64,000 nucleotides of DNA from Bdellovibrionales bacterium. GTDB lineage: Bacteria > Bdellovibrionota > Bdellovibrionia > Bdellovibrionales > JAUICD01. The position numbers were made by a program, and so were the translations under genes. The notes beneath the pieces are model-generated. The model was not told the origin of the DNA. It saw only the letters and a list, made by a program, of their open reading frames with translations, and ran no database searches. This document shows positions 8,364-60,800 of this stretch, piece after piece. Positions within the stretch are counted from its first letter, which is position 1. The number at the start of each line of letters is the position of its first letter. The DNA lies in assembly GCA_965197425.1 (NCBI GenBank), contig CBDANC010000013.1, positions 32,001 through 96,000 on the forward strand, read 5' to 3'.

Positions 8364-8542
8364 TTCGGAAGATCTTTAGAGGCCAGATTTGGCATCGTGT
8401 TCCAGAGCTGGGCAACCACTCAGCAAAAAAACCGACCGCAGGGAGATTATTTCAATTGGAAAATATAAAGATTTATCCCGTGAGCCAATTGAACCAAAGT
8501 AGGCATAGCCTCCTTATTTTTTGCTTCGTTCGGAAGACCTTT
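8364..8542 (-). repeat. modular palindromic element (family 2) with nested X module, reverse orientation
   Basis: Reverse complement reads aaaggtcttccgaacgaagc...ttcaattggctcacggga...gttgcccagctctggaacacgatg. Confidence 0.9.
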
Positions 8543-28219: not shown

Positions 28220-28533
28220 AAAGGTCTTCCGAACGAAGCCAAAAATAAGTGGACTTGTTCACTTTGGTTCAATTGGCTTACGAGATAAACCTTTATATTG
28301 TCCAATTGGATGAACCTCCTTTGCAGTCGGTTTTTCCAATTGAAATAACCTCCCTGCGGTCGGTTTTTTGACTGAGTGGTTGCCCAGCTTTGGAACAAGA
28401 TGCCAATCCCGTCACTAAAGGTAAGCTTAATGAGGCAAAAAACAAACAAAGCTTCACTTGATCCAACTGGCTATATTATTAAAATTTATATTTGCCCACT
28501 GAAAGAACCAGCAGAGCTGGTTTATTGGCCTCG
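28220..28533 (+). repeat. composite family 2 element with an internally duplicated X module and a second, partly inverted unit
   Basis: aaaggtcttccgaacg...ccaattgg x2...gttgcccagct...taaaggtaagcttaatgaggc. Confidence 0.9.
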
Positions 28534-30117: not shown

Positions 30118-30254
30118 AAGGTCTTCCCCAACACTGATTGAGCCTAGCAAACAAACCGACTTGTTGGTTTTTTGCTAGGCGAATTACGTTTTGACACAGC
30201 CACTTAAAGTCTAAAACGGAACTAAGACTTTTTGGCCTCGTTCGGAAGACCTTT
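30117..30254. repeat. two converging family 2 units (Y module on +, second unit on -)
   Basis: aaaggtcttcc at left end and ggaagaccttt at right end; ctgattgagcctagc...gctaggcgaattacgtt. Confidence 0.85.
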
Positions 30255-37622: not shown

Positions 37623-37745
37623 AGCGAACCCCGCCTGACTGCCGGATTGTCCGTCTGCCCGATCAGCTCTGGGATCTGGCACTCCGGGATCTGTTATCTG
37701 CATCTGACATCTGCCACCCGGCAACAGACACCTGATTGCTTGATT
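37622..37745. repeat. degenerate 7-8-nt simple repeat tract downstream of the four-helix-bundle gene (family 3)
   Basis: gcctgactgccggattgtccgtctgcccgatc...gatctggc...atctg...cctgattgcttga. Confidence 0.7.
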
Positions 37746-37750
37746 CACCT

Positions 37751-38044
37751 TTAAGCGTTCTTACATAATTTATATAGAAAAGCTCCTAGTCTATCACTTT
37801 CTTTTGTGAGGGCTTTGTGATTTATAATTTCTAGTATTGCCTGTGTTTCTCTGAGTGAACCTAAACTAGTTCTATAGAACCTCCGCCTTTCTTTGTTACT
37901 GCACTTCGTACTTCCTTCCGCAAGGTTTAGCACTATGCTAAGTATTGCTCTTTGGAACTGATTTTTAAGAGGCTCTTTCAGGTATAGTCCTTTAGAATTG
38001 TTGTAGAACTGAACAGCTAATTGATAAGTTTTAAAATTTTTCAT
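37751..38044 (-). CDS. four-helix-bundle protein (23S rRNA IVS protein / Avd-like family)
   Basis: LKNQFQRAILSIVLNLAEG...RFYRTSLGSLRETQ signature; AGGAG RBS. Confidence 0.88.
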   Translation of the reverse strand: MKNFKTYQLAVQFYNNSKGLYLKEPLKNQFQRAILSIVLNLAEGSTKCSNKERRRFYRTSLGSLRETQAILEIINHKALTKESDRLGAFLYKLCKNA

Positions 38045-38125: not shown

Positions 38126-38181
38126 ACTGCCCGACTGCCCGACTGCCCGACTGCCCGACTGCCCGACTGCCTGATTGCCTG
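38126..38181. repeat. octamer tandem repeat (ACTGCCCG)5 plus 2 variants (family 3)
   Basis: actgcccg x5, actgcctg, attgcctg. Confidence 0.95.
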
Positions 38182-49177: not shown

Positions 49178-49336
49178 CCACTTGGCCAAAAAACCGACCG
49201 CAGGGAGGTTATTTCAATTGGAAAAACTGACTGCAAAGGAGGTTCATCCAATTGGACAATATAAAGGTTTATCCCGTAAGCCAATTGAATCAAAGTGAAC
49301 AAGTCCACTTGTTTTGACTTCGTTCGGAAGACCTTT
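49178..49336 (-). repeat. family 2 element with duplicated X module, reverse orientation
   Basis: Near-identical to the reverse complement of 28220-28380; ends gaagaccttt just before the grxD RBS. Confidence 0.9.
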
Positions 49337-50574: not shown

Positions 50575-50669
50575 AAAGGTCTTCGATGAAACTAACAAGC
50601 TGGATTGGTGAAGTGCAGGGCAAAGCCCAAACGAAACCAGAACAGTTTGTTAGTCTCAGGGTTGCCCAG
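50575..50669 (+). repeat. family 2 branched unit (diverged)
   Basis: aaaggtcttcg...actaacaagctg...gggcaaagccc...cagtttgttagt...gttgcccag. Confidence 0.82.
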
Positions 50670-52235: not shown

Positions 52236-52412
52236 ATGAAATTTATTGCATTTGTATTTTCAATATTAATGTTTACTTCAATAAGCAATGCTGGTTCAGG
52301 AGCAGACTGTGAACAGGTTACTGCAGATGTTTCTATAAGTGATAGCACTAACCCCACTGTTTTAGATAGTTCTGGGGACAAAAAAACAAAGTCTGACGGT
52401 ACTGATAACTAA
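52236..52412 (+). CDS. 58-aa secreted small protein (below the ORF-track cutoff)
   Basis: AAGGGGG RBS; MKFIAFVFSILMFTSISNA signal peptide; followed by a terminator. Confidence 0.7.
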   Translation: MKFIAFVFSILMFTSISNAGSGADCEQVTADVSISDSTNPTVLDSSGDKKTKSDGTDN

Positions 52413-52435
52413 AAATTAAAAACTCTAAAACAAAT

Positions 52436-52465
52436 AAAAAAGGACATCTGATGATGTCCTTTTTT
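52436..52465. terminator. bidirectional rho-independent terminator
   Basis: aaaaaaggacatc-tgat-gatgtcctttttt. Confidence 0.8.
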
Positions 52466-52590
52466 GCGTGCCTTCAAATTTGTTAGCATTGTAGGCGTAG
52501 TACAAGCAAGCAGGTAGACAGTCATCAGGCAACCAATCCAGGTCCGGTATCTAGCAGCTGCATTTTCGTTTTGTTTGACTCTCGGTAAAA

Positions 52591-53015
52591 CTATGTATTT
52601 TTCCATAATTTATATAAAAAAGCTCCTAACATATCTGCTTCCACCATTAAGAGTTGGTGGTCTATGAGATCTAGTATAGCTTGTGTTTCTCTGAGCGAAC
52701 CAAGGCTTATTGCATAGAACCTTTTTCTCTCTTTGGCAGTTGGTTGGTTCAATTGGCTCACGGGATAAACCTTTATATTTTCCAATTGAAATAAACTCCC
52801 TGCGGTCGTTTTTGCACTTCCTTCTCCCAACATTGATTGAGCTTGCCAATAAAGTGACTTGTTGCTTTTTGGCAAGCGAATTACGTTCCGACAATGTTTA
52901 GCACAATGCTTAAGGTAGCTCTTTGGAATTGATTCTTGAGTGGTTCTTTTAAGCAGAGTTGTTTTGAGTTTTGATAAAACTCTTTAGCTATTTGGTATGT
53001 TTTTAATTTTTTTGG
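52591..53015 (-). pseudogene. second four-helix-bundle gene, disrupted by two family 2 modules and lacking a start codon
   Basis: KKLKTYQIAKEFYQNSKQLCLKEPLKNQFQRATLSIVLNI|65 bp|GEGSAK|66 bp|PTAKERKRFYAISLGSLRETQAIL aligns by eye with 37751-38044. Confidence 0.88.
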
Positions 53016-53121
53016 AAAAATTAAAGATATTACAGGTGCCTGATGGTTGAGCCCAGATACTGATATCAGATCTCTGAGTGCCAGATCCCAGATTTAATCA
53101 GGCAATCAAGACAAATAATAT

Positions 53122-53337
53122 TTACTTTACAGTAGAGGGTGGTGCAGCAGTTGGGCTGAAGAGATTTATTTCATCTAGGCCATGTTCTCCCTGTGCTTCT
53201 TCCAAGCTTCTTACTTCTTCTGAAGTTTCATTTTCTGGAAATATTTTCTGCTCTGTTATGGAAGAATTAACACTTTTAGTTGTAGTAGTAATGGTAGTGG
53301 TAGTTGCAAATAAGACAGCGAATAAAATACTTTTCAT
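53122..53337 (-). CDS. small, low-complexity secreted protein downstream of the YD-repeat gene
   Basis: GGAG RBS; MKSILFAVLFA hydrophobic N-terminus, Thr-rich and acidic remainder. Confidence 0.6.
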   Translation of the reverse strand: MKSILFAVLFATTTTITTTTKSVNSSITEQKIFPENETSEEVRSLEEAQGEHGLDEINLFSPTAAPPSTVK

Positions 53338-53346
53338 ACACACTCC

Positions 53347-53466
53347 AAGGTCTTCACTGAAACTGAAAGTTGCCTTGGTGTAATGATTGTACGAAGTACA
53401 AATGAAGCCAAGGTACTTTCAGCTTCAGAGTTGCCCAGCTCCGGACACTGATACCGATCCAGTTAC
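53347..53466 (+). repeat. family 2 branched unit
   Basis: aaggtcttcactgaaactgaaagttgccttgg...gtacgaagtac...gttgcccagctccgg. Confidence 0.88.
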
Positions 53467-58412: not shown

Positions 58413-58625
58413 CTCTTGTTGTATTTATACCTACACCAGGAAACAGTCGTTCGGCCTGAAGATGTCTTGGTTGCATTTGGACTTCGTCTTATAAAGGTGA
58501 GTTTAATGAGGCCAATAAATCTGGCTTCGCCAGTTGGTTCAATTGGCTTACGGGATAAACATCTATGTTTTCCAATTGAAATAACCTCTCTACGGTCGGT
58601 TTTTGCCCGAGTGACTGTTTCCTGG
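58413..58625 (+). repeat. family 2 composite (inverted W module, unit with X module) bracketed by a 19-bp inverted repeat
   Basis: ccaggaaacagtcgttcgg (58436) vs ccgagtgactgtttcctgg (58607); aaaggtgagtttaatgaggcc...ttcaattgg...ccaattgaa. Confidence 0.8.
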
Positions 58626-60457: not shown

Positions 60458-60800
60458 CAGGTCTTTCTCAACACTGATTGAGGCTAGCAAAAAAACCGAC
60501 TTGTTGGTTTTTTGCTAGGCGAATTACATTCATCAAGGTCTTCCGAATGAGGCAAAAAATAAGGAGGCTATGCCTACTTTTTTTTGCCGAGTAGTTGCCC
60601 AGCGTTGTAACACGATGCTGATCCCTTTCACAAGGTCTTCCAACGAGGCCAACAAAGTGAACTTGTTCGCTTTTTTTCAATTGGCTCACGGGATAAACCT
60701 TTATATTGTCCAATTGGATGAACCTCCTTTGCAGTCGGTTTTTCCGATTGAAATAACCTCCCTGCGGTCAGTTTTGGCCGAGTGGATGCCCAGCTTTGCA
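60458..60800 (+). repeat. three tandem family 2 units (Y module, simple hairpin unit, unit with duplicated X)
   Basis: aggtctttc, aaggtcttcc, aaggtcttcc starts; gttgcccagc and gatgcccagc ends. Confidence 0.92.

Follow-up and report, generated by a model that had tools for sequence, protein, structure and literature searches.

Two small repeat modules, probably separate insertions, in a dead PF05635 four-helix-bundle gene copy of a Bdellovibrionales bacterium

Small non-autonomous repeats are common in bacteria, and the movement of those without inverted repeats is, to our knowledge, mostly unexplained. Insertion sequences (IS) of the IS200/IS605 type carry hairpins, have neither terminal inverted repeats nor target duplications and insert beside a short motif. 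Rickettsia palindromic elements (RPEs) are described as small repeats without a transposase of their own that occur in frame in protein genes, with their peptide at a position tolerated by the fold (PMC10969869). The same source presents the pneumococcal elements BOX, RUP and SPRITE as modular repeats that cluster and insert into one another, SPRITE being a terminator-like hairpin. Here we describe a locus at positions 52591-53015 of a 64,000-nt stretch of a Bdellovibrionales genome (assembly GCA_965197425.1, contig CBDANC010000013.1, positions 32,001 to 96,000; in the following called the window), at which a dead copy of a four-helix-bundle gene contains two repeat modules, X and Y, separated by 18 bp of native gene sequence. 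The explanation that we favor as probable is that X and Y are independent insertions of small non-autonomous units into this dead copy, moved in trans.

The genome that holds the window (G000; C-numbers denote its contigs) comprises 1.6 Mb and is rated 99.4% complete. By tblastn, we identified 19 paralogues of the four-helix-bundle gene in it. Compared pairwise with the intact paralogue at 37751-38044 and against the alignment of all 19 paralogues, the locus showed two extra blocks. An earlier reading made from the sequence alone (the sequence-only reading) had described X as a 66-bp, in-frame insertion at 52744-52809 between EGSAK and PTAKE, and both the pairwise and the 19-paralogue alignment bear this out. 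It had described Y as a 65-bp insertion at 52828-52892 causing a stop and a frameshift after SIVLNI, which the pairwise alignment confirmed. X lies exactly between the codons AAA (K) and CCA (P), adds the peptide TTAGSLFQLENIKVYPVSQLNQ and is extra relative to 14 paralogues. Y is extra relative to 18 paralogues and changes the reading frame to ...SIVLNIVGT followed by a stop, then a frameshift. Once both segments are excised at these coordinates, a colinear open reading frame (ORF) ...SIVLNIGEGSAKPTAKERKRFY...KLWKNT with a terminal stop is obtained, the outcome on which the sequence-only reading had staked its claim of a four-helix frame. Without X and Y, the copy is colinear with the 97-amino acid paralogues and reaches a DNA identity to them of up to 85% over 283 columns; the conserved AEG motif reads GEG.

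The intact paralogue (P0001) matches PF05635, the 23S rRNA intervening-sequence (IVS) protein family, with 55.4 bits against a Pfam gathering cut-off of 33.8 bits. Judged by its colinearity with this Pfam-matched paralogue, the region 52591-53015 is a copy of the PF05635 gene family. This host gene family corresponds to the 23S-IVS proteins as they are presented in PMC4990558. The family profile matches the four-helix-bundle structure 2gsc_A in PDB (E-value 1.4e-6); a phmmer search of PDB with a single protein gave no match, so that 2gsc_A was found by the family profile only. Rfam gave no match at E-values up to 1 for window positions 52300-53300. The copy has no in-frame ATG, GTG or TTG upstream and no Shine-Dalgarno (SD) sequence. 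The coordinates of all features are compiled in Table 1.

Table 1 Gene copies and repeat modules discussed in the text. Positions refer to the window unless a contig is named.
Feature	Position	Strand	Genome position, evidence or remark
Pseudogene, PF05635 four-helix-bundle paralogue	52591..53015	-	stop codon 52591-52593; CCA replaces ATG at 53013-53015
Intact reference paralogue, 97 amino acids, SD sequence and ATG	37751..38044	-	paralogue alignment, Pfam match
Native gene stretch between X and Y, 18 bp, codons G-E-G-S-A-K	52810..52827	-	aligns with all paralogues
Module X, 66 bp (64 bp + TT), 22 in-frame residues on the gene strand	52744..52809	+	paralogue alignment, genome census
X copy nested in a AAGGTCTTC...GTTGCCCAG shell	8432..8497	-	C13:40432-40497
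X copy in shell, 3′ half tandemly duplicated	28264..28363	+	C13:60264-60363
X copy in shell, 3′ half tandemly duplicated	49194..49293	-	C13:81194-81293
X copy in shell with GGTGAGGTTAATGAGG-type head	58534..58599	+	C13:90534-90599
X copy in shell, 3′ half tandemly duplicated	60672..60770	+	C13:92672-92770
X-bearing paralogues			pseudogene 52591-53015; C12:103358-103708; C6:2372-2725; C15:352894-353250; C13:208716-209069
Module Y, net 65 bp (boundaries ±1-2 nt)	52828..52892	+	head CAACATTGATTGAGC, 14-bp hairpin with T run, tail GCGAATTACGTTCCGA
Full-length Y copy	30129..30193	+	C13:62129-62193; AAGGTCTTCCC before, CACAGCCACTTAAA extension after
Y copy	60469..60530	+	C13:92469-92530; AGGTCTTTCT before, next AAGGTCTTCC head directly after

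To delineate X, the genome was searched with an nhmmer profile, yielding 63 high-scoring segment pairs (HSPs) that represent 55 copies, each covering more than 50 of the 66 positions. The sequence-only reading had placed X next to a T run, and a run of three to seven T indeed directly follows X in 53 of the 55 copies. Read on the minus strand, an A run, often as G(C)AAAA, precedes X in 53 of 55 cases; the plus-strand 5′ flank is variable. Fifty of the 55 copies lie inside other repeat modules, some of them abutting gene ends, and only the five copies within four-helix-bundle genes have unique DNA on both sides.

Most informative for the ends of X are the shells, which we collected over the genome by regular expression. 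Their layout is AAGGTCTTCC, GAAYGAGGC, an A run, a small hairpin, X if present, a T run and GCCGAGTGGTTGCCCAGC. The search returned 34 empty and 19 filled shells, with X always located between the small hairpin and the T run. In nine of ten filled shells, T minus A was +4; among 35 empty shells, 15 showed a difference of +2, the T runs of the remaining ones being interrupted. Filled shells thus have two more T than uninterrupted empty shells, so that the insert amounts to 64 bp plus TT here, as it does in the gene. Pseudogene and shells give the same ends of X, down to the base.

Modules of at least five other kinds contain X, as would be expected from the proposal of the sequence-only reading that independent units account for the nested composites. 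It was found inside Y-type shells (C15:83296 and C15:454878), in five copies behind a module called “Z”, behind one other module as well, and within the T run of a Y-like tail at C15:407656. When the flanks were tabulated genome-wide, the ends of X and Y stayed constant in many contexts, consistent with what that reading had predicted for other copies. Several copies have a tandem duplication of the 3′ half, consisting of CCAATTGAAATAACCTCCCTGCGGTCGG and the T run, which indicates that X is bipartite. On the gene strand, the X consensus contains GGGAGG and, 9 nt further, an in-frame TTG, at which translation might start internally; the three identical X copies have the weaker GGGAGT instead.

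X is present in five of the 19 paralogues, always in frame, in one orientation and between the same two codons. The view of X as an insertion into a dead gene is hence correct for the pseudogene and incomplete for the family: the frames of the other four X-bearers are open, and two of these genes possess both an SD sequence and an ATG. We calculated a maximum-likelihood tree of the paralogues from which the X and Y columns had been removed, and tested clades by the approximately unbiased (AU) test. A grouping of the five X-bearers as one clade was rejected (p 5.2e-9), and given the well-supported branches, X must have been gained or lost three times or more.

The X copy of the pseudogene is identical in 66 of 66 positions to the copies at C12:103505 and C6:2519. 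The three clade-A copies thus share X at 66/66, with flanks that are 76-86% identical. Between this trio and the copy on C15, 63 of 66 positions of X agree (flanks 73-82%), and between the copy at C13:209069 and any of the other four, 57-59 of 66 (flanks 65-73%). At the divergence of the flanks, the probability of zero differences over 66 sites is 3e-5 or less. The identity of X within flanks only 76-86% alike argues for repeated and recent entry at the gene site. Three lineages of X are represented among the five copies: the C15 copy corresponds to the family consensus, the trio carries three changes and the copy at C13:209069 seven. X likely came to the gene site on three or more occasions, from different sources and after the paralogues had diverged, and two further moves or copyings between paralogues probably make five entries in all. 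Judged by these identities, the arrivals of X are recent and X is younger than its host genes. The five copies in the paralogues, out of 55, fall into approximately 5.7 kb of paralogue sequence, equal to 0.36% of the genome, and are thus strongly enriched there.

To place the insert in the protein, we consulted an AlphaFold2 model of the open X-bearing protein P0003 encoded on C15 (mean predicted local distance difference test, pLDDT, 85.3). It comprises four confidently predicted helices (residues 5-17, 26-46, 70-95 and 99-118), and residues 48-69, which come from X, make up a loop of low confidence that joins helices 2 and 3.

Y was found in 45 HSPs in a profile search of the genome, 28 of them full length. 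These 28 copies share the head CAACAYTGATTGA, a stem-loop with T run, and the tail GAATTACGTT plus approximately four bases. To the right, four kinds of continuation follow: a CACAGYCACTT extension and a GAAGGTCCCCGCAAAC module, these two being called Z and W, as well as the head of the next AAGGTCTTCC unit and DNA that is unique. Because head and tail are the same and the continuations differ, Y is a discrete module whose ends are good to 1-2 nt. Its hairpin has a folding energy of -11.8 kcal/mol (z -3.6), and none of 200 shuffled sequences folds as well. With its A run and T run, Y resembles a bidirectional terminator and is terminator-like by sequence. It appears in effect to be a shell without X; two Y copies hold X nested in the same place. 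On the left, 17 of the 28 full-length copies are preceded by AAGGTCTTCC with C or T, or by a variant differing in one or two bases. The copy in the pseudogene lacks the AAGGTCTTCC head, is preceded by CTTCTCC and adjoins the gene's own CCTTCTCC, which is only loosely like the usual Y junction; approximately ten other Y copies are likewise headless. The flanks noted in the sequence-only reading, CTTCT here and CTTCC or TTTCT elsewhere, are correct, but CTTCC is the end of AAGGTCTTCC, which, on mixed evidence, acts as a flanking direct repeat of the parent composites rather than as a simple short target.

The sequence-only reading had further stated that neither insertion carries the ends of the larger composites. 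Indeed, AAGGTCTTC and GTTGCCCAG are absent from 52591-53015 at up to one mismatch, the nearest occurrences being at 53347 and 53430. It had also reported that no clear target duplication is visible. The alignments show none either; only a TT at X and a C at Y are ambiguous.

We also asked how widely these modules occur. X was found in none of 40 related genomes, including the sole genome of the same genus, and neither the Y pattern nor the shell pattern was found in any of the 20 relatives searched for these. Metagenome and genome contig collections, with the genome of the window excluded, did not contain the exact 22-mer of X, and the metagenome contig collection, likewise without this genome, did not contain an exact 27-mer of the pseudogene locus. 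With this gene as query, no four-helix-bundle gene was found in the same-genus genome, and its spacer between the GAPDH and Rhs genes is without the cassette. In two sister-genus genomes, the gene had 27 and 33 matches, and the full-length ones were free of an insert the size of X. Among the best 120 of 225 database proteins (E-value up to 1e-5), the insert is present in only four, all from this genome; all eight listed proteins of at least 103 amino acids were aligned for this check. X-like words with different flanks occur at high summed depth in contigs of two other public runs, which suggests that the repeat family exists in related organisms beyond the genomes searched.

Public contigs were aligned to the locus; the depth in the probable source sample was low (2-4x) and none of the contigs spanned the locus, and at this depth neither an empty allele nor a circular junction was seen. 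Contigs with zero differences cover both junctions of X, ruling out that X is an assembly artefact. In a contig from another study, which differs from the gene by 8 in 121 nt, position 52892 runs straight into TGGTTTTGCACTTCCCTCTG. This joint indicates a sequence without Y and, judged by three bases, probably without X, and the contig may represent the orthologue in a relative approximately 93% identical. The contig joints seen come from paralogues; for example, a skip of 93 bases, bridged by 28 letters, corresponds to the Y-less paralogue C12:103358-103708.

Taken together, the constancy of the ends from context to context and in three independent entries at the gene site speaks for a defined unit on which a sequence-specific activity acts. 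In the explanation we consider probable, X and Y would have arrived separately in the gene copy, as non-autonomous units that some enzyme moves in trans. X would have a strong preference for the loop site in the gene, besides the T runs inside other repeat modules, and its in-frame position in the modelled loop would let the host protein survive. Y would be a terminator-like hairpin shell that landed at CTTCTCC, a sequence like the TCTTCC that borders most other Y copies, and would have killed, or helped to kill, a copy that was already start-less. As to the suggestion of the sequence-only reading that X and Y are independently mobile units of about 65 bp, both are discrete and both also occur outside the AAGGTCTTC...GTTGCCCAG shell; movement of either unit was not observed.

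Several observations weigh against this explanation. Neither the ends of X (TTGGTTCAATTG and GCGGTCGG) nor those of Y (CAACATTGATTG and ACGTTCCGA) form terminal inverted repeats, and no clear target duplication accompanies either module, the junctions being ambiguous by 2 nt (TT) for X and by 1 nt (C) for Y; at X, the TT may be a 2-bp duplication. As a single strand, X folds into a 9-bp stem (TTCAATTGG/CCAATTGAA) with a z of -0.3, and 72 of 200 shuffled sequences are as good. Monophyly of the clade-A trio was not rejected (p 0.24). Two of its three changes are absent from all 32 other full-length X copies, and copying from paralogue to paralogue fits these private changes as well as transposition does. 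A position weight matrix trained on the X sites in shells ranked the gene site only 16th to 71st of approximately 670 positions, the ranks being taken from the five X-bearing paralogue rows only. This poor rank, together with the repeated entry, shows that a T run alone does not describe the target of X; of the short target preference proposed by the sequence-only reading, the T run stands, but it is insufficient for a gene site that was entered at least three times. Survivor bias could add to the same-site pattern, with only an in-frame insertion in the loop being tolerated. None of the aligned public contigs independently covers the interior of Y (52844-52877), and the contig of the other study, with only 20 letters past the junction, could stem from a paralogue.

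The search for a mobilising enzyme belongs on the same side. Y1_Tnp (PF01797) had no match in the genome; in a control it was found in six of 14 reference genomes. Matches were likewise absent from this 99.4%-complete genome for rve and DDE_3, for the reverse transcriptase RVT_1 (PF00078) and for Phage_integrase (tyrosine recombinases, including XerC/D), the last of which was positive in all 14 control genomes. In view of the missing Y1 match, a partner of the IS200/IS605 or RAYT type was rejected, as was retro-mobility in view of the missing reverse transcriptase match. The sole IS found, at C11:5733-7683, is IS4/IS1634-like, encodes a DDE_Tnp_1 transposase of 551 amino acids and has 14-bp inverted repeats CCTGAGTTTGACA. 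On either side of it (C11:4852-8559 in all) stand direct repeats of 882 bp with 99.9% identity; IS1634-type elements typically have very long target duplications. This resident IS was rejected as a partner, its ends CCTGAGTTTGACA being unrelated to any module.

The missing enzyme speaks for an alternative in which X spreads among the paralogues by homology-dependent copying, such as short-patch gene conversion or homing-like repair, and the shell copies are passengers of their composites. The same codon boundary in all five X-bearers is what such copying would produce, the two private changes of the trio point to another paralogue as the source, and no transposase, reverse transcriptase or integrase that could move X turned up in the genome searches. 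Yet the flanks of the trio first mismatch 3 and 6 nt past X, so that no co-converted tract is visible, and the 12 identical nucleotides preceding X are conserved in all paralogues anyway. The three lineages of X sit in three gene clades, one of them being the family consensus, and the same ends occur in at least five module contexts without homology to the gene. We regard this alternative as unlikely on balance, but as the least unlikely of those considered.

In a further reading, X would be a homing-type mini-element of 66 bp for which the loop-coding part of the IVS/Avd-family genes serves as a dedicated landing site, entered three to five times. As the genome has no recognizable transposase, reverse transcriptase or tyrosine recombinase for it, the mechanism would be an undescribed one, possibly tied to the four-helix-bundle gene cassettes themselves. 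We consider such an element doubtful.

Copying without a dedicated enzyme, by template switching at microhomologies or by illegitimate recombination, at hairpins in the course of replication, would also account for the absence of terminal inverted repeats, target duplications and a recognizable enzyme for both modules. The local sequences lend it something: the flank CTTCTCC of Y is similar to TCTTCC, the usual junction, the gene site closes with TTGG or GG and then a T run, like the ends of X itself, and Y is a strong hairpin. However, sloppy switching would be expected to leave ragged ends, whereas those observed are base-identical over many contexts and three gene entries, and the hairpin of X is weak. 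This makes template switching improbable.

It is very improbable that a single ancient insertion of X was inherited and then precisely lost from the other paralogues, X being immobile and only Y arriving later. All five copies share site and orientation, and the trio may be one clade by the AU test above; but the same test rejects a single clade of five, X is far more alike than the flanks in every pair, neither sister-genus genome has an X-size insert among its full-length matches (27 and 33 matches in all), and among the best 120 of 225 database proteins only those of this genome carry it. Hardly credible, finally, is the notion that X was kept for its 22 residues or its RNA, as a selected loop or internal start that the dead copy merely inherited: X is in frame, four bearers have open frames and two of these an SD sequence and ATG, GGGAGG precedes an in-frame TTG, and the oldest copy has three synonymous and four non-synonymous changes (hand count), but non-coding repeat surroundings contain 50 of the 55 copies, two start-less gene copies, of which one is frameshifted, have an X that is just as perfect, the modelled loop is of low confidence and, in the protein comparison just named, no protein outside this genome has the insert.

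Damage is not restricted to the pseudogene. Three paralogues (window 53013-53040, C12:103708 and C12:118764) begin alike with ...TAATTTTTCCAAAAAAATTA at a start-less 5′ end, in which CCA replaces ATG and an SD sequence is missing. One of these three is without X, and gene callers stretch two of them upstream into repeat arrays (P0004 and P0090). At C12:118507-118764, a further paralogue is truncated at ...GTACTCGG and fused to GGAAGACCTT; on the other strand this joint reads AAGGTCTTCC, directly after the stop codon of the neighboring gene. A third paralogue has thus been damaged, here at a AAGGTCTTCC junction. The intact paralogue is flanked by 8-mer runs (CTGCCCGA, five times) and related degenerate words at window positions 38130-38170 and 37640-37740, and runs of ATCGGGCA/GTCGGGCA follow the stop codon in other paralogues.

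The parent composites seem to follow different rules from their sub-modules X and Y. This genome contains the word AAGGTCTTCC 145 times and the same-genus genome four times, against 6 and 8 occurrences of the reversed word, and AAGGTCTTCC stands before at least four different body types. In the same-genus genome, the ATG of a hemB-like gene adjoins one single native CTAGGTCTTAT; in this genome, a 151-bp shell-plus-X element is located at that gene start with TAGGTCTT on both sides (C13:253085-253235). The old ATGATGATAAGACCT start has been displaced upstream by the element, and the gene now seems to start inside element-derived codons. Similarly, a full Y composite at C14:166674 is bordered on both sides by the rare variant AAGGCCTTCC. 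When AAGGTCTTCC was evaluated as a duplication over 62 pairs of a head and the next head, 23 were consensus in both, six had the same variant and 33 were discordant. In two cases, then, the AAGGTCTTCC/AAGGTCTTC word behaves, as far as the flanks tell, as a flanking direct repeat, either a target duplication or a recombination core, on evidence that is mixed. The sequence-only reading had treated AAGGTCTTC as an element end; its observation that this word is missing at X and Y in the locus was right, but the word rather appears to be a flanking repeat of the parent composites. In the surroundings of the pseudogene, an empty AAGGTCTTC...GTTGCCCAG shell lies approximately 330 bp upstream (window 53347-53440), between a small ORF and an Rhs-repeat gene, and another shell lies beside the GAPDH gene (window 50576-50669).

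At this locus, the boundaries of two sub-modules of such a repeat family can be read to the base. One site, one orientation and a payload of 64 bp plus TT constitute a testable target for finding the enzyme or repair route that moves X, and the structural model suggests that a four-helix-bundle protein of the little-understood 23S-IVS/Avd type would tolerate 22 additional residues in the loop between helix 2 and helix 3. If plain gene conversion were true, the locus would represent ordinary repeat decay in a pseudogene. A literature search on transposable elements of the miniature inverted-repeat type (MITEs) in Bdellovibrio-like bacteria returned nothing relevant, which is no proof that these repeats are undescribed. 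We consider as new the boundaries of the sub-modules, the repeated in-frame entry of X at the same site, the nature of AAGGTCTTC as a flanking repeat and the absence from the relatives searched.

With respect to known systems, X and Y share with classical MITEs that they are short, multi-copy and non-coding, and the parent composites have flanking direct repeats of approximately 8 bp in two cases. Unlike classical MITEs, X and Y have no terminal inverted repeats, no clear target duplication and no IS with matching ends. As far as repetitive extragenic palindromic (REP) sequences and REPINs are described in PMC3116915, and likewise for IS200/IS605, a resemblance lies in the hairpins, the lack of terminal inverted repeats and duplications, and perhaps the short adjoining motif. 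The differences from the REP/RAYT and IS200/IS605 systems are that no Y1 (HUH) or RAYT gene was found, that X forms one weak stem and that the base 5′ of X is not conserved.

In its behavior, X comes closest to the RPEs, since in the modelled protein it adds an in-frame peptide in the loop between helix 2 and helix 3. The comparison is one of behavior: RPEs measure approximately 100-150 bp and occur in many unrelated genes, whereas X has 66 bp and its coding hosts are five paralogues of one family. The repeat family as a whole is closest to BOX, RUP and SPRITE of Streptococcus pneumoniae, with its shells and Y built from an A run, a hairpin and a T run, and with X nested in them. As in BOX and SPRITE, types of head, body and tail combine in many orders, and the shells run from GGC and an A run to a T run and GCC. 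Unlike BOX, RUP and SPRITE, the modules described here belong to another organism and have other sequences, and single sub-modules stand alone in a gene, one of them recurring at a single site. We therefore regard the locus as a new variant of RPE-, BOX- and SPRITE-like small-repeat biology, in which the recurrence of X at the same site is unusual.

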